UHGV virus genome: UHGV-1374396
Direction: 5' to 3' (one strand)
Length of the DNA stretch: 64,000 nucleotides
Origin: a virus
Shown: piece by piece, positions 5,613 to 62,995 of the stretch
How the letters are laid out: each line of letters starts with the position of its first letter
Position numbering within the stretch: the stretch's first letter is position 1
The notes under the pieces: model-generated
Database searches by the model: none
Told to the model about the DNA's origin: nothing
The model's input: the letters and a program-made list of their open reading frames with translations, nothing else
Made by a program: the position numbers and the translations under genes

Positions 5613-6616
5613 TGTTCTGATTCTTTTAGTATTTTTACCAATAAATCTTCCTTACACTTATCTTTAATACCTTGTTGTTTCATGTACCTATGTGCCAATC
5701 TTTTCTTTGAAAGTTGTTTAGTGATTTTATGGTTCACTACATCGGGTAAGTTTATCTTACTTGGTAGTACGGTGTAATAGTTACCATCATCCTTTACATC
5801 GGTATCTTTTTCTACATCTATGAACCTTGGATATTTAGCTAGATGTATAAACTTCATACTTAAATCTGTATATACCTCCCAATAACCCATATCACAATTC
5901 TTATCGGTTCGTCGTTGATGTAAGGGAGCTCCAATCATATAAACCTTTTTACCAAGCTTTTGAGGTTTGTGTATATGACCACATAGAACTAAATCAAACC
6001 TTGATAGAGTATTTAAGTTTAGATTCTCTACCGAATCTATTCTTCTATCATCGGTATCTTTTGCACCGGGATAATCAGTATGTAGTAATAGTATATGTTT
6101 ATAATCTGAGTTCAACCTTCTATTCTTAAGGTACTCAGATAAACCAGTATTATGATCTATGTAAGGTATACCGTGTACTTGAAACTCTTTGAACGGTCCA
6201 ATGTTCAATAGTGTATCTGGTTCTAGGACATTTAATACTGTGTTTTGGAATAAACTAATCCAACCTTTGGTGATATTACCTAATGTATTTACTTTCTTCA
6301 GGTCATGGTTACCCTCTATACAGTAAATACGTTGTCTTGGAAACTTATTAACTAAATCATCAAAGAAACTCTTAGCCATTAAGGCAAGTTCCTGGTCTAT
6401 GTTTTCTGGTTTATGAAACATATCTCCACAAAATAGAATAGGTACATCACCTCGTTTCTTAGATTCAGCACATAAAGTTTCTATTACATCAAAACCGTTT
6501 TTAGTTCTAGTTTTATTATCATTAAACTTTGCCCACAGGTTTAGGTGTAAATCAGAAAAGGCAAGGGCTAATAACTCCTTGCCTTCCTTTTTCTTGTTTT
6601 TCTTAAATCTTGTCAT
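5609..6616 (-). CDS. SbcD/Mre11-like nuclease (T4 gp47-like), calcineurin-type phosphoesterase
   Basis: Phosphoesterase motifs LAFSDLHL, GDMFH, GNHD, GHIH. Coupled by overlap to the SbcC-like gene. Confidence 0.8.
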   Translation of the reverse strand: MTRFKKNKKKEGKELLALAFSDLHLNLWAKFNDNKTRTKNGFDVIETLCAESKKRGDVPILFCGDMFHKPENIDQELALMAKSFFDDLVNKFPRQRIYCIEGNHDLKKVNTLGNITKGWISLFQNTVLNVLEPDTLLNIGPFKEFQVHGIPYIDHNTGLSEYLKNRRLNSDYKHILLLHTDYPGAKDTDDRRIDSVENLNLNTLSRFDLVLCGHIHKPQKLGKKVYMIGAPLHQRRTDKNCDMGYWEVYTDLSMKFIHLAKYPRFIDVEKDTDVKDDGNYYTVLPSKINLPDVVNHKITKQLSKKRLAHRYMKQQGIKDKCKEDLLVKILKESEQ

Positions 6617-7316
6617 TTACAAACAAGTTTATAATTTCAACTCTTTTATCTAGCTCTAACTCTTTAAGTATCAGTACTCGGGTATTACCATATATGTTGT
6701 TTATGATACCTACTTCTGCACCATAATCTAAAGATTGTTTAGATTTGAATATACTAACATTAGGCATATCTTCAATGCTTTGTTGTTTTACGTAACCAAA
6801 TCTTTCTAGAGCCATAAACATGATTTGAGAGATTGTCCACTGAAAGTACTGGTTTAATATTCTCTTATCATTATTCTCTATTACCCAATTCTGGAATGTT
6901 TCAAAGGTGAATGGTAAGAATATCAGATGAGTACAATGTTTTGCTAAACACTGTCTGCACATACTTATAAATTGTTCTATCTCGCATTGTGGTAGTACAC
7001 TAGCCTGTTTATATAAGAAATATGCAGCATTATCTACAAAACTTCTATCACTTACTACGTTAACCAAACCAGATTCTGCTGCTTCCTTAAAAGCTTTATT
7101 CCTTAGATTCAACAGTTGGTAATCCTGCAAAGCTAACTCTTTAGAATCATGAGATAACATATCTCCATGTTTCTCATCTTTTGTAAGAGGTAATAGGTCT
7201 GACATACTTCCAGATATGAATGTAAAACCGTTATCTACTAATTTGTTAGCTAGAGTAGTTTTACCACTACCACTAAACCCAAGGAACATTACGTTTGTAT
7301 TATTCATCTTTTCCAT
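6603..7316 (-). CDS. P-loop nucleotide kinase, candidate dNMP kinase
   Basis: N-terminal Walker A FLGFSGSGKTTLANKL. Size and context (nucleotide metabolism, T4 gp1 analogy) suggest a deoxynucleotide kinase. Confidence 0.45.
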   Translation of the reverse strand: MEKMNNTNVMFLGFSGSGKTTLANKLVDNGFTFISGSMSDLLPLTKDEKHGDMLSHDSKELALQDYQLLNLRNKAFKEAAESGLVNVVSDRSFVDNAAYFLYKQASVLPQCEIEQFISMCRQCLAKHCTHLIFLPFTFETFQNWVIENNDKRILNQYFQWTISQIMFMALERFGYVKQQSIEDMPNVSIFKSKQSLDYGAEVGIINNIYGNTRVLILKELELDKRVEIINLFVNDKI

Positions 7317-10439: not shown

Positions 10440-10844
10440 TTATTTTTTATTTGATTCGGTGTAAATAATCTCCTGTATACTTAATATGGTGAATGTGTGA
10501 TCTTCAGGATTAAAGTTTTCTACTTCTTTAAAGAGATCTTCAGGAAAGTCTATTTCTTTACCAGCATACATACCGTAAGTAAGTATTCTACCCACTTTAA
10601 GTGAATCTCTGTAACATGTGTACTCTTCTGTTAGAATACCGCCTTGAACCATAACTCCTTTACGTGGTAGGTCTTTTTTATCTGTATTATCAGGTAAGAT
10701 AATACCTCCTACCTTTAAATCAGTATTCTTAGGTGTAAGTATCATTATTCGGTTCTGTGGTAATGAACCACCTAATTTACAAGCTAAGATATTCTTTATC
10801 TCAATTGCTTGTTCTTTACTAATGAAATTTTGTTCTACGTACAT
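10440..10844 (-). CDS. GroES-like co-chaperonin (T4 gp31 analog)
   Basis: ...RIMILTPKNTDLKVGGIILPDNTDKKDLPRKGVMVQGGILTEE...LKVGRILTYGMYAGKEIDF matches the GroES pattern (GGIVLP...G.VvavG...vkvGD.V.f..y.G.e). Length 134 aa. Confidence 0.55.
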   Translation of the reverse strand: MYVEQNFISKEQAIEIKNILACKLGGSLPQNRIMILTPKNTDLKVGGIILPDNTDKKDLPRKGVMVQGGILTEEYTCYRDSLKVGRILTYGMYAGKEIDFPEDLFKEVENFNPEDHTFTILSIQEIIYTESNKK

Positions 10845-11302: not shown

Positions 11303-11511
11303 AGTGATTCAGTTGTTAAATTAGAACTTACACTATCAATGTGAGCTAATTCTCTTTCGCAGCAAGGGCATGTTACTACCCTCATATTTGACATAAGATG
11401 TCTACTGAAAATACTTTTAACGTCTGATATTTCATATTCAAACTCCGTATCACAGTAGTTACACTTAGCTCGATATTTAACTCTTTCTACTCCTCTTAAA
11501 ATCTTCTTCAT
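11299..11511 (-). CDS. Small zinc-ribbon protein
   Basis: CNYC...(x25)...CPCC cysteine pairs in 70 aa. Confidence 0.4.
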   Translation of the reverse strand: MKKILRGVERVKYRAKCNYCDTEFEYEISDVKSIFSRHLMSNMRVVTCPCCERELAHIDSVSSNLTTESL

Positions 11512-13853: not shown

Positions 13854-14612
13854 TTAAATTAACTCGTCTATCGAAGTTTTTAATAAATGCCAATCTCTCT
13901 TATAACAGTGTAGAGAATCAATTGTATGGAATAAGAAACCTGGTTTTACACCAACTTCTTTTGCTATGTATTCCATCATACACCATGCTAGATATACATC
14001 ATCTCCAAAGTGTCCAACAAAGTCAGAGCTACGTTGGTGATATACTAGATTCAATTGTTTACCATTACCCAAATCTCTGATAAGTAAATCGTAATACATT
14101 GAACAAGGTATACGAGCATCACCACAGTAATGTTTAGTATCACTACCTGTGAATATAGGTATAATTGCCTTACGAGTATCTGGGTCATTCTTTAGTAATT
14201 CAATAACCTCTTCGATAACTGTACCTGAATTCTCAGAATTACCGTTTTTACGATTAAACCTTTCAGCATAGGTATAGTCGAATTTCATACCTTGGTCAGT
14301 TTTTACTAAAAACTCTTTCCACATACCAGGATTAAGTTCCCAAGCATTACCAGGATTAAGTTCCTTACCAGATATTCTCTCTTGAAACTCTTTTCTTGCC
14401 CATTCAAATGTTTTTGTATAGATGAATAGGAATTCTGGGTCTGGTAACTCTGTAAGACAGTACTGTTTACAAATCTCTTCTTTAGTTACCATGTTATCAT
14501 CTTTAGAGATGTCTTTATTCTGGTAAGTTTTAGGTTTATTTAATAAACCCATTTCCCATAAGTCTCTGCCCATTTCAGACATTAACTCTCTTGTGTTACT
14601 GTATATTCTCAT
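13854..14612 (-). CDS. Thymidylate-synthase-family pyrimidine C5-modifying enzyme with Asp at the specificity position (dCMP hydroxymethylase- or methylase-like)
   Basis: LLKNDPDTRKAIIPIF vs E. coli ThyA LKNDPDSRRIIVSAW. Catalytic IPCSMYYD vs APCHAFFQ. LVYHQRSSDFVGHFGDDVYLAWCMM vs [25 protein letters not shown], so the Asn177-equivalent residue is Asp, as in T4 dCMP hydroxymethylase. Confidence 0.75.
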   Translation of the reverse strand: MRIYSNTRELMSEMGRDLWEMGLLNKPKTYQNKDISKDDNMVTKEEICKQYCLTELPDPEFLFIYTKTFEWARKEFQERISGKELNPGNAWELNPGMWKEFLVKTDQGMKFDYTYAERFNRKNGNSENSGTVIEEVIELLKNDPDTRKAIIPIFTGSDTKHYCGDARIPCSMYYDLLIRDLGNGKQLNLVYHQRSSDFVGHFGDDVYLAWCMMEYIAKEVGVKPGFLFHTIDSLHCYKRDWHLLKTSIDELI

Positions 14613-14650: not shown

Positions 14651-15571
14651 CTATGCTTTATGAGCTGATTTTCTTTTAAGAAGCTTCCTTTTATAGGATT
14701 TACGCTGAGAGAATGTGATACAACTTTCTGGGTATTCAATTGTATCATCTCCCAAGTTTAAATCTTTTGCTAACAAGGGTTTATATTCATACAGGTCTGG
14801 ACGTATCACCTTAAATGCTCTTAGATATACTTTAAACTTAGAGAACTCTTCAGGAGTACCGTCCATGAATTTATTATATACCTCTTTTACTCTCTTGTAC
14901 CAAGAAGATTTTTTATCATAACCTTTGAAAATATCTTTGAAAGGTTTATGAGCTACGTACATTAAGAGAGTTTCTACGTTACCATACATCTGTGTAGCAA
15001 ATACGTTTATTTGTACTGCCTGGTCTTTACCATATACATATTCTGCCATACGTTGAACCAGTAAGAAGTCGAATATAAGTCTCTTTGTAATTTCTGAAGC
15101 TCTAAGAACTACAGTTACTACTGGTATATCCTCCTGAAACCTTTTACTAAAGGTAGCTGCTAGAAGGCACTGTTTACCATTATTATGTGAATTATTAAAT
15201 AGGTAGCTTATATTATAATTCTGATTATAGGTTGTCTTCTTTACATTAAGCTGAGATTTAATCAAATCTAGTTGATTAAAGTCTATGTAATTGTTTAATA
15301 ATACTGTCCACTTAGCTTCAGTATAATTAAAGTGACGACCATAATCGAATTCAGGGTCTATCCAAGCTCTACGTATTTTTATAAATACATTATAGCATAC
15401 TGCTACTCCTGCATTTGCCACTGCTCCCTTTGAGAACAATAGAGGGTCTAAAGTTAGAAAACCCTCATTTAACTTTTCCCATGCCTCTTGTGAAGTAGCA
15501 AATTCCACGGCATGACAAGTTTCTTCTGAGTTTAACTTTAGACCTTCAAGGGGCTTATTCCAACCACCCAT
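14651..15571 (-). CDS. Hypothetical protein; possibly a highly diverged TS-fold paralog
   Basis: Weak, by-eye correspondence to ThyA core elements: QCLLAATF ~ PCHAFFQF, VVLRASE ~ LYQRSCD, IFDFLLVQRMA ~ [12 protein letters not shown]. Not reliable without profile search. Confidence 0.3.
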   Translation of the reverse strand: MGGWNKPLEGLKLNSEETCHAVEFATSQEAWEKLNEGFLTLDPLLFSKGAVANAGVAVCYNVFIKIRRAWIDPEFDYGRHFNYTEAKWTVLLNNYIDFNQLDLIKSQLNVKKTTYNQNYNISYLFNNSHNNGKQCLLAATFSKRFQEDIPVVTVVLRASEITKRLIFDFLLVQRMAEYVYGKDQAVQINVFATQMYGNVETLLMYVAHKPFKDIFKGYDKKSSWYKRVKEVYNKFMDGTPEEFSKFKVYLRAFKVIRPDLYEYKPLLAKDLNLGDDTIEYPESCITFSQRKSYKRKLLKRKSAHKA

Positions 15572-15697: not shown

Positions 15698-16570
15698 TTA
15701 ATAATTACTGGCCTGTCTGAAACAATTTACCTTATGTTTCTTAAAGAAGAGTACATAAAAGGTTTCTGGTGTAAAACCCATAACACTTAAGTAACCGCAG
15801 TAAGCAATGAAAGCTCTTACTATCTGTTCCTGGTAACGTAAACCATCAGTTAATTCTTGAGTTTGTTTCCAAGTCTTATTCTTTAAGAAGTTTCTACCTA
15901 TGTTAAGATGATAGCATACTTTCCATAGCATATTATCTTCTTTTGAATGCAGTTCACGAGTTATACTTCTGAATCCAGGGATATAACTTAGTACATGTTC
16001 TACATCTTTGTTGTGGTCAACTAGTAATTGTTCAGTTACTAAGTTAAACAGTTGAAGTTTAGGTTCTACATAACCTTCAGTCTGTAATATAAAGTGTCCA
16101 AAACCAAATAAACCATTTAGATTATCTACTGAATGGTCTGTACCTTTTAGTATACGTTGGTTGATGTATTCATATATATCCTCTGGACCGATATTAGCAT
16201 ATATGAATAACTCTGTAAAGAAAGCAAAGGCATCTGCTTGTTCTTCGTTTGAGTTCTGCAAATGATTTATTACCATCTCGAACTGATCATGGGTTAATAG
16301 GTCCATATTCCAACCTACTGATTCAGCTATTCTGATAGCTTCTTCTGTTGATTCATAACCTTCTGCAGTCTCTTCTATAACTCTTGCAGAGAAATCTTTA
16401 AGTACCAACTGACCTTGTTCTGAGTTTATACTTATGGGGTACATTGGTAGATTCTTTTCAATCTTGCCAATGTAACCTTCCATAAGTCTCTTCTGTAACT
16501 CAAAAATCTTTTCTAAGAATAGGCCATCCTTTACCTCTTCGGGTGTTTCTTTTATTGTACGTATGTCCAT
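15698..16570 (-). CDS. Putative all-alpha NTP pyrophosphatase (MazG or dCTPase/dimeric-dUTPase-like)
   Basis: Acidic helical segments VIEETAEGYESTEEAIRIAE and EEQADAFAFFTELFIYANIG resemble the MazG EExxE / EELGD helices. Lies between the TS-like and dUTPase-family genes. Confidence 0.3.
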   Translation of the reverse strand: MDIRTIKETPEEVKDGLFLEKIFELQKRLMEGYIGKIEKNLPMYPISINSEQGQLVLKDFSARVIEETAEGYESTEEAIRIAESVGWNMDLLTHDQFEMVINHLQNSNEEQADAFAFFTELFIYANIGPEDIYEYINQRILKGTDHSVDNLNGLFGFGHFILQTEGYVEPKLQLFNLVTEQLLVDHNKDVEHVLSYIPGFRSITRELHSKEDNMLWKVCYHLNIGRNFLKNKTWKQTQELTDGLRYQEQIVRAFIAYCGYLSVMGFTPETFYVLFFKKHKVNCFRQASNY

Positions 16571-17136
16571 TACTTTTTAGGTTTATTATTACCAGATCCC
16601 ATACCTTTATCACCTCTTGTTCCCCAGTTCTTAGCTTCTTTATCGAACTCTTCCTGAGTAATCTCTTCTGGTTCAGTTAAATAAATTGGTGTATGAATCA
16701 ACTGTACCAAAGCTTCTCCAGCTTTTAGTTGAACTGGTCTGCATGATGTATTATATACACATAGGTTATATTCTCCAGTATAAGGTGAATCACCTACTTG
16801 AGCAGTGAATATTAAACCTTGTTTAGAACTTCTACCTGATTTATTTGCTACTATCAGAGCTGAATTAATAGGCTCTGCCAATATTCTAATACCACTTGGT
16901 AGATTGATTCTTGTGTTTGGTCCAAGGAAGATATCAGTAACATTACCTTCATTGTAAGCTAGACTTACTGTGTTTTCTGTATTTGCTACTTCTGATATTT
17001 CTAAATGAGGGTTACTCAATGCAATATCAGACAGTTTAAAATCCTCTGGTATGTAGAAATCCAAACCAGCATCACCAACATTATTTCTTGTTGGTTCATG
17101 TACTTTACGTACTTTTACGAATCTAATTCTTTCCAT
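16570..17136 (-). CDS. dUTPase / dCTP deaminase family protein
   Basis: Motifs NVGDAGLDFY (AGxDL), VANKSGRSSKQGLI (RSS), QVGDSPYTGEY (GxIDxDYRGE-like). Confidence 0.7.
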   Translation of the reverse strand: MERIRFVKVRKVHEPTRNNVGDAGLDFYIPEDFKLSDIALSNPHLEISEVANTENTVSLAYNEGNVTDIFLGPNTRINLPSGIRILAEPINSALIVANKSGRSSKQGLIFTAQVGDSPYTGEYNLCVYNTSCRPVQLKAGEALVQLIHTPIYLTEPEEITQEEFDKEAKNWGTRGDKGMGSGNNKPKK

Positions 17137-17823: not shown

Positions 17824-19656
17824 CTAGTACTCCTTAACTGTAAGACCTAATTTCTTAGCTTTCAGCATTTTACTTGAGGTAGAGTTTATGTCTCCAGTAA
17901 ATATAATCTTGGCTTCACTAAAAGACGAGGTTTCCTTATATTCGGGATTAGCTTTTAAAAACTCAGCTTTAGTTTTATATTGTTTTGGACTACCAGTAAG
18001 TATACATAAAGTTTGATTTGATTCCTCTAGATGAAAATCTTCTATGCCCTTGTGCATTGATTTTAGTAACTTATTTAATTTTCTAAATTCTTTGGAATCC
18101 TTTGATAAAACCCATTCGGTTTTATAATTAGGTAGTTTACCCTCTCCGGTAAGTATTATACGTTCTAATATATTGCATACCTTTGGTCCGTGTGAATCAA
18201 GGCACATAGTTTGTATTATCTTAGCAAGAGTAATATCCTGGAGTATCTTCTTGAATTCAGTGTATATTTTCTTACCTAATAAAGTAGGTATAGCTCTTTT
18301 TATAACCTTAGGTTTTACTCTAAGTATATTTGAGACAACTTTGCCATTCTCTTTTAGGTATTCATATAATTGTTCTGATAATGCAGGACCTAACCCTGGT
18401 ACAGATAGTATATCACATGAATTTAAGAATTTATTCTTTATACCTTGGTCTTTTGATAGTACAGCATAAGCATGACAATCTTTAACTGTAAATTCTCTTT
18501 TTGGTAGAGGTAGATTCTCTCCAAAGGTTTTTACCTTATAAATAAAAGGTATAATATCTCCAGCTAATGAGATAACTATCTTTGAACCTATTCCAATGAC
18601 CTTATCTACTAAGAAACCATAGTTATGACCTGATACATTGGTTATAGTTTTACCATCAAGTACTACTGGTTTTACCTGCAGTGTTGGGTAGTATTCTCCA
18701 GTTTTACCAAGATTCCAGTTTATATTAACTACCGTAGTCTCGGCTACCATTGGTTCAAACTTGATAGCTATACAATCTGAAGGATATTCTGTTGGTACCT
18801 TATCTCTATGATTTGAACTTGGTTTTATTACGAACCCATCTAATGGGAATTTATACTCAGACCTGAAGTTTGATAGAGTGTAGTATACTTCCTTGAACGA
18901 AGATTTTAATAGTCCATCAGAGAAGATAAATGTTGCTGGATAAGGTATACCAGTTTTACCTACCCTAGATACTACATCTTTATCATCTAAGTCAACTAAG
19001 GTATTATCTTTGATGTATCTGTAATCATAAATAACGTACTCAAGGTCAGAAGCTTTCTTGAATTCTACTTCGTTAGAATCATCATAATCAGAGTTTACCA
19101 TACCCGATACGAAAGACCTTGGGTTCTTAAACTCCTCTGAGTATTTCTTTTCGAAGGTATCTTTACTTATTAATACCTCTCCTCTGAGAATAAAGCATTC
19201 ATAGTCTTTAAACGCATTAAAGTCAATTGGTTGTTTGATTAGCATAGTTCTCATCAAACTATAAATATCTTTTCCCCAATTACCATCACCTCGAGTTGAT
19301 ACCGAGAAGAGTTTTCCGTACTTTACTACCATTTCAAAAGAACACCCATCATACTTGGGTGTAACAATTACTGAGTGTTTCTTAATTACGTCTGGTAATT
19401 GTTTATACAGATCACCCCAATCTGATGTTTTATGTACCTGTATCTTATTTAATGAGCCCATAATAAATGGGTGAGGTACAGTATAATTATTACTGGTAGA
19501 AGGTGCACCAATCAATCTATTTTCCATGCCTAGCTTTTTCTCTAGAGCATCGAATTCAATATCGGGCATTATCTCTTCTCCATTATAGTAAGCTTCTCTG
19601 GCCTTTATATATAATTTAAGGTCTTTCTTTAAGTTTGACTTTGTCATAATATCCAC
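17824..19656 (-). CDS. NAD-dependent DNA ligase (LigA-like)
   Basis: N-terminal Ia-domain-like YYNGEEIMPDIEFDALEKKL, adenylation motif KYDGCSFEM (KxDG). Length 610 aa. Confidence 0.65.
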   Translation of the reverse strand: MDIMTKSNLKKDLKLYIKAREAYYNGEEIMPDIEFDALEKKLGMENRLIGAPSTSNNYTVPHPFIMGSLNKIQVHKTSDWGDLYKQLPDVIKKHSVIVTPKYDGCSFEMVVKYGKLFSVSTRGDGNWGKDIYSLMRTMLIKQPIDFNAFKDYECFILRGEVLISKDTFEKKYSEEFKNPRSFVSGMVNSDYDDSNEVEFKKASDLEYVIYDYRYIKDNTLVDLDDKDVVSRVGKTGIPYPATFIFSDGLLKSSFKEVYYTLSNFRSEYKFPLDGFVIKPSSNHRDKVPTEYPSDCIAIKFEPMVAETTVVNINWNLGKTGEYYPTLQVKPVVLDGKTITNVSGHNYGFLVDKVIGIGSKIVISLAGDIIPFIYKVKTFGENLPLPKREFTVKDCHAYAVLSKDQGIKNKFLNSCDILSVPGLGPALSEQLYEYLKENGKVVSNILRVKPKVIKRAIPTLLGKKIYTEFKKILQDITLAKIIQTMCLDSHGPKVCNILERIILTGEGKLPNYKTEWVLSKDSKEFRKLNKLLKSMHKGIEDFHLEESNQTLCILTGSPKQYKTKAEFLKANPEYKETSSFSEAKIIFTGDINSTSSKMLKAKKLGLTVKEY

Positions 19657-20146
19657 AGTTTATTAATTCATGACAACCATTACGGTATAAACAATCAGGT
19701 ACCATAACCTTAGCAACATGAGGGTCTACTAATTTTATGGCTTTCTTTAATAGATGAGTGAACTTTCTTGTTTCTGGTGAAGCATGAAAGCAAAGTCTCT
19801 TCCTACCTATAAAGATTAGAGCTTGAGCATTAATTAGGAAGCTCAGATTAACTGGGTCTGTTTGTCTACGTTCTTCTCGTTTAACTCCAGTACGGTCTTC
19901 TCTTGAGGTACCTACAAACCATTCAACCCCTAACTTATGTCTTACTAAGTGATTCTGAACATAATAAGGGATTCCTTCACATTGTACTAGAAAGGTTAAT
20001 GCTCTAATAGGAGAATGTTCTGCCTGGAGCATTTTATCTTTCCATACATCTGCAACTGTATTAGTTACTACTTTCTTGTTAACTGTTTGCAATGCAAGCT
20101 CTTTAACTACATCCCAACCAATTAACTGTCTAGCTGTTATTTTCAT
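19616..20146 (-). CDS. ThyX-fold (flavin-dependent thymidylate synthase-like) protein with a divergent signature
   Basis: EHSPIRALTFLVQCEGIPYYVQNHLVRHKLGVEWFVGTSRED aligns with ThyX [39 protein letters not shown]. RHR is replaced by RHK, the Ser of RHRxxS by Gly/Val, and SGRY by TSRE. Only 176 aa. Confidence 0.4.
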   Translation of the reverse strand: MKITARQLIGWDVVKELALQTVNKKVVTNTVADVWKDKMLQAEHSPIRALTFLVQCEGIPYYVQNHLVRHKLGVEWFVGTSREDRTGVKREERRQTDPVNLSFLINAQALIFIGRKRLCFHASPETRKFTHLLKKAIKLVDPHVAKVMVPDCLYRNGCHELINCGYYDKVKLKERP

Positions 20147-27503: not shown

Positions 27504-29039
27504 TTATTCAACTTTTATAATATAATATAGAGTGTAGTAAGGTGGTCTATTCTCATGAGCTTGGCCATTACCCGTTTTACCTGTTAGGTAGATAGTTCCA
27601 TTACCTTCATTTTTAGCAGAAGAAGTTCTTAAACCTTCATACTGTCTGGTTGCTGTAAAATTACCTCCAGCTTCATTTATACCTTCTTCCTCCAAAGCTT
27701 TAGGTACTGGGAAAGAATTACCGTCAGCTTTAGTATCATCTGCATAGATGTGGCTGTGTGATGGGATCTCCTGAACATTTAACGTATGTTTCTCTTCTCC
27801 ACCTGTTGAACCAAGGTTGTAATCTGGTAAACTATCCTTAACTCCAACGATAAATCTACCTTTTAAATCTGGTAATCTGAAGTAACCCTCTGCAGTATTA
27901 TAAGGCTTTCCCTCGGAAGATACTGCTTCGTTATACTTATTACCTAATACTGCGTATAATTTAGGGTAATCTTTTATGGATAAATATCTTCCATCGCATA
28001 CCATATAACCGTTTGGAGTAGTTGAACCAGCATACATTGTTACTGAACCAATCGGTACACTTATGAGTGATTTAAGTGTTTCTTCGATATACTTATTTAA
28101 ATCATCTATACGATTATTTATTGCTTTTAAACTACTTCGAGTAAGCTCTTGTATTAGTTCACTAAGATTATGGTAGCTAGATTTAGTATTACTAATTCCG
28201 CTATATATAAAGTTCATTAATGACTTTATACTATTCTTGAATAGGTTATGGGTGAATAGTGTATAAGGTGCTTCACCCATAACGCTTCCTTGGTAGGGTA
28301 CTATAGCGAAAGGTTCTAATTTATTATTTACCTCATTTACTCCTGTACCATATATACCAACGAGTACCATAGAGTTTTTGTTCTTAGCAAATTCTGGGTA
28401 AGCTCTCATTACTGTATCCTCTAAACTACTGAATGAAACCTTATCCTTTACAACGGGTATGTTATCGTTGCTGCTAGTATTATACCATTTATATAAATCT
28501 CCTGTTGGATAGTATGGGTCTCTTGATTCTCTATATATAGAGTAGAAGTCATAGGGTGAGTTATTGAATATAGCTACTAGAGTTACTGGGTTATCTACCT
28601 TCTCTGGTATATGTTCATGATGTGCAAATAAGAATACCTCGTTACTCTCAGTACCTTCTATGGGTACTGTGATTGACCCTTGGCCAAGTCTTAGTATAGT
28701 TCCATCTCTAGCTATCAGAGATTGCATTGGTTCCTCACCAGTAGATGAAGATGTGGTTCTATGTGAGTTTATCTTACTACGTACTACATGACGTAGTTGG
28801 TCTACGTTTTCTTCTTTTGCAGATATTGAGTTCTCATCACCTGAGGCATAAGGGTAAACCACTAATTGTTTAATACCTCCACTATCTACAACTTTTGCAG
28901 AACCAAATCCCGATATAGGTCCTACACCGGAAGTAATTCCGAAAGTTTCGCATAACCTCTTAGATGATAAACTATCACCATAATTGAAAAATGTTTCTTG
29001 TGCTGCCATATTATTCTTCTTTGTTAGTTTCTTGTTCAA
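27504..29039 (-). CDS. Tail fiber protein with C-terminal phage tail-collar domain
   Basis: LPDLKGRFIVG...GSTGGEEKHTLNVQEIPSHSH...HENRPPYYTLYYIIK matches the tail-collar fibre domain pattern (LPDLRGRF...GG...HTLT..E.P.H.H...HNN.PPY..L.YIIK). Confidence 0.65.
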   Translation of the reverse strand: MNKKLTKKNNMAAQETFFNYGDSLSSKRLCETFGITSGVGPISGFGSAKVVDSGGIKQLVVYPYASGDENSISAKEENVDQLRHVVRSKINSHRTTSSSTGEEPMQSLIARDGTILRLGQGSITVPIEGTESNEVFLFAHHEHIPEKVDNPVTLVAIFNNSPYDFYSIYRESRDPYYPTGDLYKWYNTSSNDNIPVVKDKVSFSSLEDTVMRAYPEFAKNKNSMVLVGIYGTGVNEVNNKLEPFAIVPYQGSVMGEAPYTLFTHNLFKNSIKSLMNFIYSGISNTKSSYHNLSELIQELTRSSLKAINNRIDDLNKYIEETLKSLISVPIGSVTMYAGSTTPNGYMVCDGRYLSIKDYPKLYAVLGNKYNEAVSSEGKPYNTAEGYFRLPDLKGRFIVGVKDSLPDYNLGSTGGEEKHTLNVQEIPSHSHIYADDTKADGNSFPVPKALEEEGINEAGGNFTATRQYEGLRTSSAKNEGNGTIYLTGKTGNGQAHENRPPYYTLYYIIKVE

Positions 29040-29508
29040 ACTCTGAAATCATATCCCTTAAACTAGAGAACCTTAGTGTTATGATGTATACTAGTACTTT
29101 CCATACACTAAAACCTTTCTTAACACCGTGTAGTACACAGATGTGTGAATAGATGCTATCTATCTCAAAACCATAACATAGGATTAGTACTATTGAAGCT
29201 AGGGTTTTTGGTTCTATGCCCATTGGTTTACCAAAGGACATTCCTAGAAAAGAAGCAACTAAAATATAACATAAATAATCTACTGTCTTATTTAAAGTTC
29301 TTCTACATGCTCTAGAACGTCTTACTGGTTTATTTAAATGTATACTTTCTGATATGCCAAACCAAAAGTCTGCACCTATTAATACAAAAGCTAACATTAA
29401 CATCCAACGTAGTTCAAAAAATATATATTGAGCTTCTACACCAAGGGTTAAGGCTAATCCGCCTCGTACCCCTTGTGAAGTTAAGTGTTCTCCAATGTTG
29501 CTGTCCAT
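29011..29508 (-). CDS. Polytopic membrane protein (3-4 predicted TM helices)
   Basis: Hydrophobic segments LALTLGVEAQYIFF, WMLMLAFVLIGADFWFGI, LCYILVASFLGMSFG, LASIVLILCYGF. Confidence 0.45.
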   Translation of the reverse strand: MDSNIGEHLTSQGVRGGLALTLGVEAQYIFFELRWMLMLAFVLIGADFWFGISESIHLNKPVRRSRACRRTLNKTVDYLCYILVASFLGMSFGKPMGIEPKTLASIVLILCYGFEIDSIYSHICVLHGVKKGFSVWKVLVYIITLRFSSLRDMISEFEQETNKEE

Positions 29509-58290: not shown

Positions 58291-59793
58291 TTATATTGGT
58301 GATATGACAGTGTTACTTTTACCTTTACGAATGTGGTTAGTTATAGCTTTACCCATAATATCATCATCAGCAAATACATCTTCTGATAAGGCATCTTCTC
58401 CTTCAGAGTTAGATTTATGTTTACCCATAGCTACCGGTCTATTGAAACTATCATAGATGAAGGTTTTGGATTCGTATATAAAGAAAGGGTCTTTTACGAT
58501 TATGTTATCATTTCTTATATCTTCCTCTAAACCATTTATAATAACAGATCTGTTTTTTGCAGTAGTAAGCCAACCTGGAGCCTTATCAACTTCGGGTCTG
58601 GTTTTACCCTTTTTCTTAATCATTTTCTGATAGTAGTACAACCTTGGGTAACCTTCAGTCTGTAACATTGATGTTACAGCTAAACCTACGTCATTAGATT
58701 CTGGTGCTAGAGTAGCCCAGTTAAATAATTGACCAGTATCACCTAATAGTCTAGCATATTTTTCAATTGGCATTCTACCTTTATATACTGCATTCTCTTC
58801 ACCATCTTTATCCATACAGGTAAATGATGAGTAGTCGGAAGCTCTACCAGTTGCAACGTCTGCTCCTATAAAATAAGATTTAGTTTCGTCTGGTAAATTG
58901 AATTGTAAATACTGACCGTTATATCTACGTTTTATTACTGGGTATTCTGATAGACAATCTTCGATAGCTTTGATATCCATCAAATCAAATACTGAGTTAC
59001 CAGAACTAAGGAAGTCTCCATCAATCTCTTGGGCAGTACGTTTTGGTCCAAGGTTTTTTGACATAACATTATACCATTCCTGGTCACGTTCTGGGTGCAT
59101 TTCCCAGAAAAGACGTATAGCATTAAAGTTATTACCTCCAGATATTGCATCTTGCCAAGTCTTATAATAGAAGCCTTGAGAACCGTATGGTGTACTGTTA
59201 ACAATAGCACTACCTCCAGTAGATAGTGTTGGTAGAGCTGCTGCCCAAATTTGACCTGCCCATCTTACAATAGCGGCTTCGTCTATAACCAATAGAGATA
59301 GTGATTCAGAACGACCTGCTTCAGAAGATGTTGGAATTGATTCTATAAATGAACCATTCGCAAATTCAATCATTGAAGAACTACCATACTCACCTGGACG
59401 ACCGTTTGTAATGGGTACCTGCATATACCAAGGTAAGTTCTTGTACATGAACTTGATCTTCTTAAGTACTTTCTTAGCAGTAGTATCTTTAATAGATATA
59501 ATATTTACCTTCTTATTGGGATGGTACATTGTTAACCAAAGACAATATGCCGATATAAGCTCAGTAATACCAGCCTGTCTAAACTTGAGTATGATGTTGA
59601 ATCTCTGTAAGACAAACTGGTATAAAACTGATTTTTGATAAGGGTATAGGTCGAATCTAACCTTACCTCTTACCGGGTGTATAAGCCATAAGAATTGTGT
59701 AAAATAGAATACATCTTTACTAACTTTAGCTAAGTTTGATATCTCATCTTTGGTAAGACCTTGTGTTGAAGTATCAATTTTTATTTTAGCCAT
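58291..59793 (-). CDS. Terminase large subunit
   Basis: ATPase Walker B SLLVIDEAAIV. C-terminal nuclease-domain acidic residues (YFIGADVATGRASDYSSFTCMD, DVGLAV). 500 aa. Confidence 0.7.
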   Translation of the reverse strand: MAKIKIDTSTQGLTKDEISNLAKVSKDVFYFTQFLWLIHPVRGKVRFDLYPYQKSVLYQFVLQRFNIILKFRQAGITELISAYCLWLTMYHPNKKVNIISIKDTTAKKVLKKIKFMYKNLPWYMQVPITNGRPGEYGSSSMIEFANGSFIESIPTSSEAGRSESLSLLVIDEAAIVRWAGQIWAAALPTLSTGGSAIVNSTPYGSQGFYYKTWQDAISGGNNFNAIRLFWEMHPERDQEWYNVMSKNLGPKRTAQEIDGDFLSSGNSVFDLMDIKAIEDCLSEYPVIKRRYNGQYLQFNLPDETKSYFIGADVATGRASDYSSFTCMDKDGEENAVYKGRMPIEKYARLLGDTGQLFNWATLAPESNDVGLAVTSMLQTEGYPRLYYYQKMIKKKGKTRPEVDKAPGWLTTAKNRSVIINGLEEDIRNDNIIVKDPFFIYESKTFIYDSFNRPVAMGKHKSNSEGEDALSEDVFADDDIMGKAITNHIRKGKSNTVISPI

Positions 59794-61000: not shown

Positions 61001-61059
61001 CCTTAATAACTCTAGGTACCTTTCAAAAGTTGAAAGTTAGTACTAGTTTTAAAGCTACG

Positions 61060-61076
61060 TAGTTCAGTTTTTAAGC
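61060..61076. promoter_or_regulatory. Perfect hairpin ctttcaa-aag-ttgaaag
   Basis: 7-bp stem with a 3-nt loop. The motif TTTCAAAAGTTG recurs as TTTCAAAAAGTTG at 61137-61149. Confidence 0.35.
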
Positions 61077-61090
61077 TAAAATACTACACG

Positions 61091-61139
61091 TAGCTTTTTC
61101 AAAAAGTTGTAAAAAAGGCTACTTTTTGCCAAGAGCTAG
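61091..61139. promoter_or_regulatory. Hairpin aaagctacgtag...ctacacgtagcttttt (about 10-bp stem, ~25-nt loop) followed by a T5 run on the plus strand
   Basis: Inverted repeat agctacgtag / ctac(ac)gtagct. Confidence 0.3.
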
Positions 61140-61286
61140 GCATACATAACTAGTTCATTATCAATTAGTTACGAAGAAAACGGAGCGGCAAGCGAATTAA
61201 GACTTGAATTACTTTAGTAATTCTAAGTCTTATAACCTATACCTTATACGTTATTAGTTACCAGATAACGTTATTATGCTATATAT

Positions 61287-61342
61287 AAAAAAAGAAAAAA
61301 AGGTATATATTTATATATATATACCCAAAAAAAGAAAAAAAA
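61287..61342 (-). terminator. Intrinsic terminator for the MTase/endolysin transcript: A7GA7 - ggtatatat/atatatacc hairpin - A7GA8
   Basis: The minus-strand RNA would read U-run, hairpin GGUAUAUAU...AUAUAUACC, U-run. A direct 15-nt A-rich repeat flanks the palindrome. Lies 30 nt downstream of the 61371 stop. Confidence 0.45.
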
Positions 61343-61370
61343 TACAATACCCGGCTCTAGAGACGAAAGG

Positions 61371-62402
61371 CTAACGATTAAGGCAATTGATGAACCATAA
61401 ACCCACTTCGTACACAGAGCCCTTTGCTAAGGCATACCTTGCCTTATTGAGGTAGTAATTGTAATTCGATGTATTCATGTAAACCTTAAACTCATTCGGA
61501 AAGCCCATTATGTTTTTGAAGTCCTTAATCCCAATAGGCCAACCATCAGGTCTAAATTGCCTATCTGCAGGTCTTAAGGTTAATGGAGCCTTATCCCATT
61601 CCAATCTGTAAACTCCAGGTAATGTTGACATCTTAGCTGTTTTGATTGGCCACTTCTTTTCATGTTTGAAATCATTAACCCAAAGGTCATGTATCTGACC
61701 TACACTGAGATTAATCTTCTTTGGGAGTTTACGGTAGTCATACATTGCAAGTACTTTATCTGACTTCGGTATCCAGTTACAGGACTCATTGATGTTAGAA
61801 CATAAGTCTAAGTCCATAACTAGAGGTTCTAATACACCTTTGGTATCTTTCAAACTATTAACTTTAAACAACGTATCAAATTTGTTCAACAGCTTTGCTT
61901 TCTTCTTAAGCACTCCAACTATTACTAAACGTTTTCTAGATAGTTGAGAATTACCAAACTCGGATACTGAACAACAATGATAGATTAGTTTATACTCAGG
62001 TAATGATTCTTCAAAGTAAGTCTTAGGTAGTAGACTTAATAATCTGGGTAGATTCTCTAAAAGAAACATCTTAGGTTTGAAATGATTGATAGCTTCTAAT
62101 ACTAGATTCAAACTCTTATTCTTCTCGGGTTTACCAAGTTGTTTAACCTTTGAAAGTCTCATAATAGAAGATGCTCCACAGTCTGGAGAACTAACTATTA
62201 CATCAACTTTCTTATCAATCACATCTTCTAAGTTTCTTGTAAACAATGAACTACCAAAGTTACCTTTCCATTGTTCTTCTTTCTTAGTATGAAATACTGC
62301 TCTTGGTTCTACGTTACCAATGATATTATGTTTAGCCAGTTTCCAAGGGAATAATAAAGCTCCCTGACCAGCTGATACACCTAAAACGTTATACTTTCTC
62401 AT
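61371..62402 (-). CDS. DNA (cytosine-5) methyltransferase homolog with atypical motifs I and IV
   Basis: Aligns with M.HhaI across the catalytic domain: VLGVSAGQGALLF (motif I FAGLGGF), NFG, DVIVSSPDCGASS (motif IV DILCAGFPCQAFS), KPKMFLLENLPRL (motif VI KPKVVFMENVKNF), C-terminal IMGFPNEFKV (motif IX MGYPDSYKV). Pro-Cys is replaced by Asp-Cys. Confidence 0.6.
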   Translation of the reverse strand: MRKYNVLGVSAGQGALLFPWKLAKHNIIGNVEPRAVFHTKKEEQWKGNFGSSLFTRNLEDVIDKKVDVIVSSPDCGASSIMRLSKVKQLGKPEKNKSLNLVLEAINHFKPKMFLLENLPRLLSLLPKTYFEESLPEYKLIYHCCSVSEFGNSQLSRKRLVIVGVLKKKAKLLNKFDTLFKVNSLKDTKGVLEPLVMDLDLCSNINESCNWIPKSDKVLAMYDYRKLPKKINLSVGQIHDLWVNDFKHEKKWPIKTAKMSTLPGVYRLEWDKAPLTLRPADRQFRPDGWPIGIKDFKNIMGFPNEFKVYMNTSNYNYYLNKARYALAKGSVYEVGLWFINCLNR

Positions 62403-62995
62403 CCTGGAAATTGTTTTACGAACTGATTATAAGCTGCCTGTAATTTAGTATCATAACTATTTTGTTTATAACCCGGTCCATTATATCTTCTAGCAAATTC
62501 TGACCACTGTCTAGTGTTCAAATACTTAATAATACCAGTAGTATTAAGAAAATTAATCAATAACTCTAGCTGGTTATCTTCTGATTGGGTGTTTAGGTTT
62601 ACAAACTCATCAACGTTTTTACATTTACAAGCGGCATAATTTAGGCCCATTATTTGGAATAATCCCCAACTAGCAGATTTTAATGCTGCCTCCCTATCAA
62701 TAACCATAGCTCTTTTAAGACGTGTCCATTCTAATTCTCCGCCTTTGTACTTAGCTTTATTCCATGTAGGATACACTATATCGGGTTCGGTTTTTAACAG
62801 TCTTTGTAAGTCTTTATTACCTTTCTTCTTCAACTCTGCATAAAACACATGGCCTTCAAATAGTATTTTACAACGTTTTGAGGGTAAAAATCCACCTCCA
62901 ACTCCTGATTCTACCAGTTTTACAGCTAGCAATGATGCTGGATGTATACCGTGTTGTCTAGCAATTTCTGCTATTCGATTATTAGTTAAACTCAT
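62399..62995 (-). CDS. Endolysin, DUF3380-type N-acetylmuramidase
   Basis: LLAVKLVESGVGGGFLPSKRCKILFEGHVF and C-terminal RRYNGPGYKQNSYDTKLQAAY match the DUF3380 phage muramidase pattern. Confidence 0.55.
   Translation of the reverse strand: MSLTNNRIAEIARQHGIHPASLLAVKLVESGVGGGFLPSKRCKILFEGHVFYAELKKKGNKDLQRLLKTEPDIVYPTWNKAKYKGGELEWTRLKRAMVIDREAALKSASWGLFQIMGLNYAACKCKNVDEFVNLNTQSEDNQLELLINFLNTTGIIKYLNTRQWSEFARRYNGPGYKQNSYDTKLQAAYNQFVKQFPG

Follow-up and report, generated by a model that had tools for sequence, protein, structure and literature searches.

A phage clade of cytosine-C5 methyltransferase homologs with a P-x-C-G motif and a lysine pocket, linked to a dCMP-type thymidylate synthase homolog and possibly involved in DNA base modification

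Introduction

Cytosine-C5 DNA methyltransferases (C5-MTases) of the Pfam family PF00145, such as M.HhaI, M.HaeIII and Dcm, carry the nucleophilic cysteine of motif IV within a Pro-Cys-Gln signature and have a Gly-Asn pair in motif X; an aromatic residue of motif I (Phe18 in M.HhaI) stacks on adenine. In M.HhaI, Gln82 and Asn304 adjoin the transferred group; the Q82A substitution lowers methylation about 16-fold, and the Y254S/N304A double substitution weakens the binding of S-adenosylmethionine (AdoMet) and slows methylation, with extended groups being favored, an effect of pocket mutations that carries over to other C5-MTases (PMC3526304). Here we describe a phage protein of 343 amino acids (aa), denoted below the window MTase, which is encoded in a 64,000-nucleotide (nt) stretch of the virus genome UHGV-1374396 (the window, that is, the whole stretch of DNA analyzed). 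It has the fold of these enzymes and the same order of motifs I, II, IV, VI, VIII, IX and X but differs from them in that Pro-Cys-Gln is replaced by x-Cys-Gly, Gly-Asn of motif X by (Ala/Gly)-Lys, and the phenylalanine of motif I is lost throughout its clade. This clade is linked to a homolog of thymidylate synthase (TS) of the type that acts on deoxycytidine monophosphate (dCMP) and is so far found only on phage contigs.

The motif X asparagine has been altered both in the laboratory and in nature. M.MpeI N374K and M.MedI N377K become able to use carboxy-S-adenosylmethionine (Cx-SAM) as a carboxymethyl donor; in M.MedI N377K, the kcat/KM of this reaction rises from 0.04 to 14.5 (up to about 360-fold), and the mutant still methylates with AdoMet, giving more than 99% protection (PMC12015181). 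In CmoX, a natural phage enzyme, Arg350 occupies the Asn304 site and Cx-SAM is the sole cofactor accepted (PMC12783734).

In modules of the T4 and MetaGPA type, a dCTPase and a dCMP hydroxymethylase are combined with a transferase that acts at the DNA level. In most of the pyrimidine hypermodifications known from phages, a group is added to a hydroxyl that was installed beforehand, late in infection and before packaging (PMC13326640). For the TS homologs, residue rules have been formulated (E. coli TS numbering is used throughout): N177D denotes a dCMP substrate, L143 transfer of methyl, L143D/E of hydroxymethyl, and D169N a 5-hydroxy product (PMC13326640, PMC8670742).

Results

A C5-MTase homolog with an altered catalytic motif

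The window MTase (Table 1) is a C5-MTase homolog, with a similarity to this superfamily that is far above chance, as follows from concordant profile matches and fold. It matches PF00145 (DNA_methylase; residues 60-312, E = 6.1e-12 and a score of 46.1 bits, the cut-off being 22) and PHROG 116 (DNA methyltransferase; E = 1.5e-10), and the profile of its family retrieves M.HaeIII (E = 4e-10), M.HhaI and DNMT1, with Dnmt2 proteins among the weak matches. The score against NCBIfam TIGR00675 (dcm), 37.5 bits, lies under the cut-off of 100.65, and so does that of a distant member of the clade (P0186 of the far group described below; 62.1 bits). The AlphaFold2 model derived from 50 homologs has a mean predicted local distance difference test score (pLDDT) of 89.8 and a predicted template modeling score of 0.89, is uncertain solely at the mobile catalytic loop (residues 78-87), and shows the two domains of the C5-MTase fold. 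All top Foldseek matches of this model have that fold (E about 1e-13, TM-scores of 0.6-0.67), with a probability of 1.00 for 3G7U, 8YF3, M.HhaI, DNMT1 and M.HaeIII; second in rank is 8YF3, the structure of CmoX from Synechococcus phage S-B43 (SpCmoX). The target-recognition region is of normal size and motif IX is retained.

All the motifs quoted by the first-pass annotation of this DNA are present, namely, SAGQGA (residues 10-15), NFG (48-50), SPDCGASS (72-79), ENL (116-118) and MGFPNEFKV (299-307), so that the C5-MTase architecture it had recognized from the letters alone is borne out by PF00145, AlphaFold2 and Foldseek, including the structure prediction that it had proposed as a check. With canonical C5-MTases, the protein shares the cysteine nucleophile, the acidic residue of motif VI (ENL in place of E-N-V), the arginine pair of motif VIII (Q-x-R-x-R), the G-x-G of motif I and the ribose-binding glutamate. 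The substitution of Asp for Pro in the Pro-Cys dipeptide, also noted previously, is confirmed: in the HMMER alignment, SPDCG of the window MTase lines up column for column with GPPCQ of DNMT1, which places Asp74 at the proline and Gly76 at the glutamine that follows the predicted nucleophile, Cys75. In contrast, the earlier description of the AdoMet motif as degenerate holds only in part. G12, G14 and E32 are invariant in the 50 sequences aligned, which rules out a degenerate site, and the predicted AdoMet site is largely intact; it is altered, though, in that the equivalent of the HhaI Phe18 aromatic is lost, with Ser, Cys or Gly in its place across the clade. The aspartate of motif III is not conserved in the family either. 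We considered Asp74 as a new catalytic residue but this is unlikely because the position varies within the clade (D, E, N, S, K, A or T).

Size, groups and distribution of the clade

A word-indexed search with the window MTase yielded 1,137 homolog clusters (at 90% identity), all of them on phage-like contigs; P-x-C-G is the motif IV signature of more than 1,100 relatives. The best 120 of these 1,137 are 61-92% identical to the query and reside on contigs of 60-97 kb, and SPDCGAS is found in 118 of the 120; thus, the Asp-Cys dipeptide, initially taken for a peculiarity of a single gene, is instead a hallmark of the clade. When 1.84 billion representatives were searched exhaustively with HMMER, 239 matches were obtained, in three groups: the close and mid groups consist of proteins of 330-350 aa with 33-66% identity to the window MTase, and the far group of longer proteins (about 380-820 aa, 25-33% identical). 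The motif (G/S)(H/A/S)-P-x-C-G is present in virtually all 239, and the top 150 include a single canonical PPCQ/ENV protein. In several members of the far group, N6/N4 DNA methyltransferase domains are fused to the protein. In IMG/VR, 577 close-group and 88 mid-group relatives were identified.

Among 50,697 phage records, tblastn searches started from the window MTase and from one member each of the mid and far groups detected no member of the clade in a cultured phage; the sole matches were two records of uncultured gut phages and a weak one to a haloarchaeal virus. No characterized member was found in these records or in the literature searched, and no publication on this clade came up among those on methyltransferases of gut phage families or the follow-ups on CmoX. 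The clade is a distinct, apparently uncharacterized branch of the C5-MTase superfamily, observed to date on phage contigs only.

In the close and mid groups, G12, G14, E32, R34, N48, P73, C75, S79, E116-N117-L118, Q153, R156, R158 and K320 are invariant (G76 is conserved at 90% or more in the 50-sequence alignment); clade-wide, R34, C75, G76, Q153, R156 and R158 are, and motif VI reads DNL in the far group. The catalytic motifs stay invariant among sequences that share just 20-40% identity. Furthermore, three far-group members (P0217, P0236 and P0195) are interrupted by an intein precisely where HPE meets CG in motif IV, which makes the catalytic cysteine the +1 extein residue. On the strength of the invariant catalytic residues and the placement of these inteins, the predicted active site is clearly under selection.

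A rebuilt pocket around the transferred group

Three sites that line the pocket in M.HhaI are changed in the clade: Pro80 is replaced by a variable residue (x), Gln82 by Gly (in 335 of 338 clade members, Gly follows the catalytic Cys), and Asn304 by Lys (Lys327 in the window MTase). The assignment of the third site requires some explanation. The far-group version of motif X, (K/R)-Q-T-G-K-x-M-P-x-(Q/E)-F, superposes on canonical (K/R)-Q-x-G-N-(A/S)-V-P as well as on the SpCmoX sequence R-V-G-R-M-V-P-P; in the mid and close groups, the motif is T-V-(A/T)-K-x-P-P-Y-E, and in the window MTase itself A-L-A-K-G-S-V-Y-E. In the AlphaFold2 model, the last two helices are separated by a loop (residues 327-330) that includes Lys327. 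An ungapped alignment from MGFP suggested another candidate, the invariant Lys320 of the N-K-A-R stretch, which HMMER put one residue off; this candidate was dropped in favor of Lys327, given the match of far-group QTGK to canonical QxGN, the location of the loop and the covariation of this column with motif IV. Accordingly placed by motif alignment and covariation rather than by coordinates, Lys327 would occupy the position of HhaI Asn304 and SpCmoX Arg350.

The covariation was assessed on 338 clade sequences reduced to 161 clusters at 60% identity. When x at the Pro80 position is Asp, the Asn304 position is Lys in 58 of 60 clusters; when x is Glu, in 43 of 44; and when x is Asn, in all 8. 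When x is itself Lys, the 304 position is mostly Asn (7), Ser (5) or Gln (3), that is, 15 of 21 clusters, followed by Arg (3), Lys (2) and Ala (1). Overall, Lys is present at the 304 position in 122 of 134 clusters in which x is not Lys as against 2 of 21 in which it is (Fisher p = 2e-14, uncorrected for phylogeny), and one of the two sites is occupied by a basic residue (Lys or Arg) in 148 of 155 clusters. The two positions covary and behave as neighbors, which supports the alignment of motif X. This pattern shows that the conserved feature of the predicted pocket is one lysine, supplied from either the 304 or the 80 position.

The changes affect the same sites, the motif IV Gln and the motif X Asn, that were mutated in M.MpeI N374K, M.MedI N377K and M.HhaI Q82A/Y254S/N304A. 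These, however, are laboratory point mutants of canonical enzymes that keep Pro-Cys, whereas the substitutions described here are natural, fixed in the clade and coupled to a changed Pro80.

Linkage with a cytosine-nucleotide module

The window encodes a TS homolog that, when aligned to E. coli ThyA, retains Cys146 and has Asp at the position of Asn177, the combination expected of an enzyme acting on dCMP. N177D and L143R are present in all 62 TS homologs aligned from the loci analyzed here and from MT121964, a 75.5-kb genome that is collinear with the window (27-67% protein identity); position 147 is Ser or Thr in place of His, and D169 is kept. The combination of Arg143 and Asp169 fits none of the three published product signatures, and no characterized TS homolog with Arg at the L143 position was found in the sources compared. 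The 5-methyl-dCMP synthase of phage Xp12 has Asn143 and belongs to a different subfamily. In addition to the TS homolog, the window encodes a MazG-like pyrophosphohydrolase that is a candidate dCTPase, a dUTPase/dCTP-deaminase-like protein and a P-loop kinase (Table 1), in agreement with the earlier proposal that this phage modifies cytosine at the nucleotide level. MT121964 has the same set, namely, the MTase, the TS homolog, MazG, the dUTPase-like gene, the kinase and protein X discussed below. Neither a canonical ThyA nor a zinc dCMP deaminase was detected in the window or MT121964. A 176-aa open reading frame (ORF) of the window (19616-20146, minus strand) shows weak, partial similarity to ThyX (PF02511, E = 4e-5, below the threshold).

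Linkage between the MTase and the TS homolog was examined in the far group, in 73 IMG/VR loci totaling 1.13 Mb. A TS homolog 28-38% identical to that of the window is found within 10 kb in 60 of the 73 loci, usually directly downstream of the MTase gene and often overlapping it, and most of the loci that lack it end at a contig edge. A MazG-like gene lies directly upstream of the MTase in 24-29 loci (24 by tblastn, 26 by phmmer), which gives the usual order MazG-MTase-TS. Furthermore, 49 loci encode an AsnB-type glutamine amidotransferase/ligase directly upstream (Pfam Asn_synthase, E = 2e-43), 44 a dCMP-family deaminase and 34 PolA. Many environmental phages have these genes together in a module of the AsnB-like ligase, MazG, the MTase, the TS homolog, the dCMP-family deaminase and PolA (e.g., L045:2084-3421). 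An amide ligase next to the module suggests that a carboxylate may be part of the predicted product. In the close and mid groups, the TS homolog was found within 10 kb in three IMG/VR loci, and both the window and MT121964 encode the MTase, the TS homolog and MazG together.

The reverse does not hold. TS-like matches are present in 194 of the 50,697 phage records, and nearly all of these lack the MTase, so the association appears to be asymmetric, the MTase coming with the TS homolog and the TS homolog being independent of the MTase. Cultured phages with a TS homolog of the R143/D177 type include Clostridium phage CPAS-15, Streptomyces phage KimJongPhill and Pseudomonas phage PMBT14, in which the gene order is kinase, pyrophosphohydrolase, X, TS, deaminase, PolA. 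The subfamily occurs widely among cultured phages infecting Gordonia, Clostridium, Streptomyces and Pseudomonas.

Protein X, which in the window is encoded between the MazG-like gene and the TS homolog, consists of 306 aa and has no Pfam match. In blastp comparisons, X of the window is linked to its counterparts in CPAS-15 (4e-9) and KimJongPhill (3e-5), and CPAS-15 to PMBT14 (7e-7), the latter protein being joined via CPAS-15 alone, without a direct match to X of the window. Its AlphaFold2 model is of low confidence (pLDDT 62), with the dCMP hydroxylase 9iqu (E = 7e-4), MilA and the T4 dCMP hydroxymethylase as the best Foldseek matches; the spacing of Cys135, R157-A-S-E and D168 is TS-like, and hhalign gives a probability of 0.3% for X against TS. 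From the model and the motif spacing, X is probably a second, very divergent paralog with the TS fold, in which case these modules hold a tandem of two TS-like enzymes. A relationship to the HAD-like gene located next to the TS of Xp12 was also considered but there is no similarity. In the window and in three cultured-phage loci (L241:4208-4957, L242:2901-3962 and L243:3153-3941), X is always located between the MazG/dUTPase gene and the R143/D177 TS. In the far-group loci, X was not found, and the MTase fills the slot between MazG and the TS homolog.

Altogether, the organization follows the logic of the T4- and MetaGPA-type modules, and the far-group loci have the same gene order; the difference is that the DNA-level component has the C5-MTase fold and not that of a glycosyl- or carbamoyltransferase.

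Genomic position of the MTase gene

In the close and mid groups, the MTase gene is always located just upstream of the genes for a large terminase (TerL) and a portal protein, both homologous to those of the window (at least 70 IMG/VR loci), and because this synteny is constant, the two groups are one broad phage lineage. In the window, the gene also adjoins the endolysin gene, which lies directly upstream; the stop codon of the endolysin gene and the start codon of the MTase gene share the sequence ATGA. Relatives carry one or two genes between the two, for example, a gene for a 116-aa protein and an oppositely oriented HNH endonuclease gene in relatives that are about 64% identical (L004:9163-9980); given these insertions, the overlap is not conserved. 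Hence, the link to the lysis gene that had struck the first-pass annotation as odd is real in this phage, whereas the conserved location is upstream of TerL, and the coupling to the lysis gene is incidental. A scan for promoters and terminators around the MTase gene gave nothing beyond chance, and a restriction endonuclease gene was never seen beside the MTase in the loci examined.

Several additional observations pertain to this region. The MTase gene is separated from the next downstream ORF by 370 nt (61001-61370) that contain no ORF of at least 40 aa and no terminator-like site, and gaps of about 280-620 nt follow the gene in two relatives (L002 and L004). Several TerL ORFs of the mid group are 2.4-3.5 kb long (e.g., L168, L172 and L208), which suggests inteins or other insertions. 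The sole recognizable holin of the window (Phage_holin_4_1; 29011-29508, minus strand) is encoded about 33 kb from the endolysin, beside a tail-collar and fiber gene and not within a lysis cassette.

Discussion

A candidate DNA-base-modifying enzyme acting downstream of the TS homolog

Taken as a whole, the clade defined by the P-x-C-G motif and the lysine pocket has, in our estimate, an even chance of being a new class of DNA-base-modifying enzymes, which would either derivatize a 5-substituted cytosine installed by the TS homolog, for example, by O-alkylating 5-hydroxymethylcytosine or replacing its hydroxyl, or add a carboxylated group at C5 with no CmoA supplied by the phage; in many lineages, the AsnB-type ligase would then amidate the product. 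The specific scenario that we favor, tentatively and with somewhat less confidence than this general one, is that the MTase is the late, DNA-level partner of the TS pathway and acts on modified cytosine. In this scenario, the protein would be a catalytically competent AdoMet-type enzyme but not an ordinary methylase of the Dcm type. The fold, the conserved catalytic residues, the rebuilt, covarying pocket, the genomic linkage and the location among late genes are observations, from which we infer the substrate, the cofactor and the product. The idea that the protein uses a different cofactor or substrate, raised by the first-pass annotation, has gained comparative support from the three changed pocket residues and the linkage with the TS homolog, although a plain 5-methylcytosine (5mC) methylase is still a live rival.

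Under the favored scenario, the TS homolog, in the window together with X, would supply a 5-substituted dCMP, most plausibly 5-hydroxymethyl-dCMP, that replaces C during replication. The MTase, a late product whose translation is coupled to that of the endolysin, would find as its substrate DNA that has been replicated and is about to be packaged: it would flip a cytosine-type base out of the phage DNA, and Cys75 would attack C6. Gly76 would make room for the substituent, which the lysine, with the aspartate, would handle. Derivatization could then take either of two routes, transfer of a group from an AdoMet-type cofactor onto the hydroxyl of the substituent, or expulsion of the hydroxyl driven by the cysteine, after which a nucleophile would be captured. 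Reportedly, both the transfer of groups involving the hydroxyl and Cys-driven substitution are among the known side activities of C5-MTases, as described by Liutkeviciute and colleagues.

If the TS homolog, MazG and the kinase replace C, as in T4 and Xp12, C5 is already occupied, leaving little for the transfer of a methyl or carboxymethyl group to this atom. This occupied C5 favors a role downstream of the TS homolog, as do the asymmetric dependence on the TS homolog, the equivalence of the slots of the MTase and X, a pocket that is enlarged and contains a lysine, and the amide ligase that is often encoded nearby. The predicted late timing fits as well, since the position of the gene in the window, overlapping the endolysin gene and upstream of TerL, matches the pattern of late hypermodification.

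Several considerations weigh against this scenario. Of the seven TS homologs from PRA-PH/TS/deaminase/PolA modules (PRA-PH being a MazG-family pyrophosphohydrolase) that have been assayed, five made 5-methyl-dCMP (bioRxiv 10.1101/2024.12.05.627091), the likeness to our loci being one of module composition. Should the TS homolog make 5-methyl-dCMP, the base in DNA would be 5mC, with no obvious chemistry left for a protein of the C5-MTase fold. Moreover, simple O-alkylation needs no invariant nucleophilic cysteine. The 80/304 covariation fits equally well a purely structural latch between the catalytic loop and motif X, given that D-K, E-K, K-N and K-Q are complementary pairs and that the observed set, which also includes N-K and K-S, is what a side-chain latch would produce; furthermore, the placement of Lys327 at the Asn304 site itself derives from motif alignment and covariation and not from coordinates. 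The 60 of 73 loci with linkage are not independent events and perhaps reflect a few lineages with inherited gene order. Finally, GATC is strongly avoided in the window, with 52 sites observed against 207 expected (a ratio of 0.25, z = -13), and has an observed-to-expected ratio of 0.58 in MT121964; the avoidance implies that the genome is not indifferent to GATC-specific restriction and weighs somewhat against a bulky cytosine adduct.

Alternative functions

Some of these same points would be accounted for if the window MTase were a conventional AdoMet-dependent 5mC methylase and the TS homolog a 5-methyl-dCMP synthase, the former polishing leftover C late in infection or protecting particular sites, and the odd residues of motifs IV and X amounting to a lineage-specific latch. 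We consider this, the main rival, doubtful, even though every residue of the classical mechanism is conserved and the threshold of PF00145 is passed. The far-group loci share their module and its dCMP-family deaminase with the assayed PRA-PH/TS(D177)/deaminase/PolA modules, most of which give 5-methyl-dCMP, avoidance of GATC would be consistent with a small modification, for example, 5mC, and the fusions of several far-group members to N6/N4 methyltransferase domains are of the kind often seen in anti-restriction methylases. The pocket speaks both ways: residues at positions 80 and 304 form the complementary pairs that a latch needs, and Asn-to-Lys mutants such as M.MedI N377K still methylate to more than 99% protection; yet Q82A alone costs M.HhaI about 16-fold and changes of Asn304 weaken AdoMet binding, whereas Gly at the 82 position is near-universal and Lys at the 304 position predominant in the clade, in which, besides, motif I lacks the adenine-stacking aromatic residue. 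A methylase of the ordinary kind would, moreover, leave the AsnB-type ligase of 49 of the 73 far loci unexplained. The score of the window MTase against the dcm model falls far under the cut-off, and Xp12, the classic phage with fully 5mC-substituted DNA, is not among the three phage records matched by a clade member and has Asn143 in its TS.

The ligase is what would be expected if the protein were a CmoX-like C5 carboxymethyltransferase that makes 5-carboxymethylcytosine from the Cx-SAM produced by the host CmoA, with amidation wherever an AsnB-type ligase is present. In both CmoX (Yang et al. 2025, PMC12783734) and the MTase clade, the Asn304 site is cationic and the Gln82 site small (Ser in SpCmoX, Gly here), and both genes are often found next to a ligase of the asparagine synthetase family, CmoY in the former case and the AsnB-type protein of most far-group loci in the latter. 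Asn-to-Lys substitution boosts carboxymethyl transfer, 8YF3 is the second-best structural match of the model, and host CmoA alone sufficed for the activity of SpCmoX in E. coli (PMC12783734). Nevertheless, this function appears improbable. CmoX carries SPPC (S95, P96, P97 and C98) and Arg350, the published definition of the family, whereas the window MTase has S-P-D-C and Lys, and the clade as a whole P-x-C-G with a lysine that can move to position 80, although some members have Arg at the Asn304 site; sequence similarity between the two is marginal (tblastn E = 0.88 against the window). CmoA is present on 76% of the CmoX contigs (PMC12783734), as opposed to none found by tblastn and phmmer with SpCmoA and EcCmoA in the window, MT121964 or the 73 far-group loci, or by phmmer in 74 mid-group loci; the partners of the MTase clade are instead the TS homolog and MazG. 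CmoY was likewise absent from the window, MT121964 and the far-group loci, and the AsnB-type ligase, found in the far group only, is missing from the window and MT121964, and so from the lineage of the window itself. The tight linkage with the TS homolog would remain unexplained and, with C replaced through its action, there would be no free C5.

That the protein is an inactive or non-DNA-directed relic, either a DNA-binding or regulatory protein or a Dnmt2-like RNA methyltransferase, is very improbable: several phage C5-MTase clades with disturbed motifs are indeed inactive in E. coli (PMC8256090), Dnmt2 is among the weak profile matches and the motif III Asp is not conserved, but the nucleophile and all catalytic motifs are invariant at 20-40% identity, inteins sit at the active-site cysteine, the target-recognition region is of normal size, motif IX is present, and synteny is kept in hundreds of phage genomes.

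Implications

The clade is large, with its 1,137 clusters and 577 close-group loci in IMG/VR, and belongs, in part, to a widespread lineage of human-gut phages with genomes of about 75-87 kb. The base that it may produce is thus likely to be common in gut viromes and could affect restriction, CRISPR targeting, bisulfite, enzymatic methyl (EM-seq) and nanopore sequencing, and virome quantification; if the clade does represent a new class, an undescribed cytosine derivative would be present in a very abundant group of human-gut phages with genomes of about 80 kb, as well as in many phages from the environment. The clade also provides a natural version of changes at Gln82 and Asn304 that so far have been mainly engineered, and adds to them a change of the supposedly universal proline. 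The swap of the lysine between motifs IV and X is a testable structure-function rule, and the TS homolog with R143, X, the MTase and, in many phages, the amide ligase make up a compact, defined gene set. Even if the enzyme turns out to be a plain 5mC methylase, Pro-Cys-Gln and Gly-Asn would be dispensable for 5mC chemistry.

Other features of the window

Table 1. Genes and sequence motifs of the window that are discussed in the text
Feature	Coordinates	Strand	Evidence and remarks
MTase gene	61371..62402	-	ATG start; 343 aa; cytosine-C5 MTase fold, P-x-C-G/lysine-pocket clade
Motif I	62355..62381	-	Residues 8-16 (GVSAGQGAL); G-x-G core retained, equivalent of HhaI Phe18 aromatic lost
Motif IV	62166..62189	-	Residues 72-79 (SPDCGASS); Cys75 predicted nucleophile; Asp74 at HhaI Pro80 site; Gly76 at Gln82 site
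Motif VI	62046..62060	-	Residues 115-119 (LENLP); ENV equivalent
Motif VIII	61929..61955	-	Residues 150-158 (GNSQLSRKR)
Motif X equivalent	61407..61448	-	Residues 319-332 (NKARYALAKGSVYE); Lys327 probably at HhaI Asn304/SpCmoX Arg350 site
Endolysin (N-acetylmuramidase)	62399..62995	-	PF11860, E = 8e-61
Large terminase	58291..59793	-	tblastn to gp17-type terminases; MTase just upstream in close and mid groups
TS homolog	13854..14612	-	PF00303; PDB alignment; Cys146 and Asp169 kept; N177D, L143R, H147S
X	14651..15571	-	306 aa; between MazG-like gene and TS homolog; no Pfam match
MazG-like (all-alpha) nucleoside triphosphate pyrophosphohydrolase, candidate dCTPase	15698..16570	-	PF08761; PHROG 12184
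dUTPase/dCTP-deaminase-like	16570..17136	-	PF00692, PF22769; NCBIfam dut and dCTP_deam both below cut-off
PolA	11477-13843		In the gene run after the TS homolog
P-loop dNMP-kinase-like	6603..7316	-	AAA_28, dNK; PHROG thymidylate kinase; elsewhere in window

The window is a fragment of a T4-like genome that encompasses replication and structural genes, nearly all of them on one strand. In base composition, CpG is depleted (rho of 0.50 in the window and 0.41 in MT121964), without an excess of TpG or CpA, and CATG is mildly avoided (0.65). An NAD-dependent DNA ligase (17824-19656, minus strand) is encoded alongside gp32-, UvsX-, UvsW- and gp46/47-like genes, so that a compact T4-like replication set is combined with a family A polymerase. 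In addition, there is a weak match to a Cpn10/GroES-like co-chaperonin (10440-10844, minus strand), similar in this respect to gp31 of T4.

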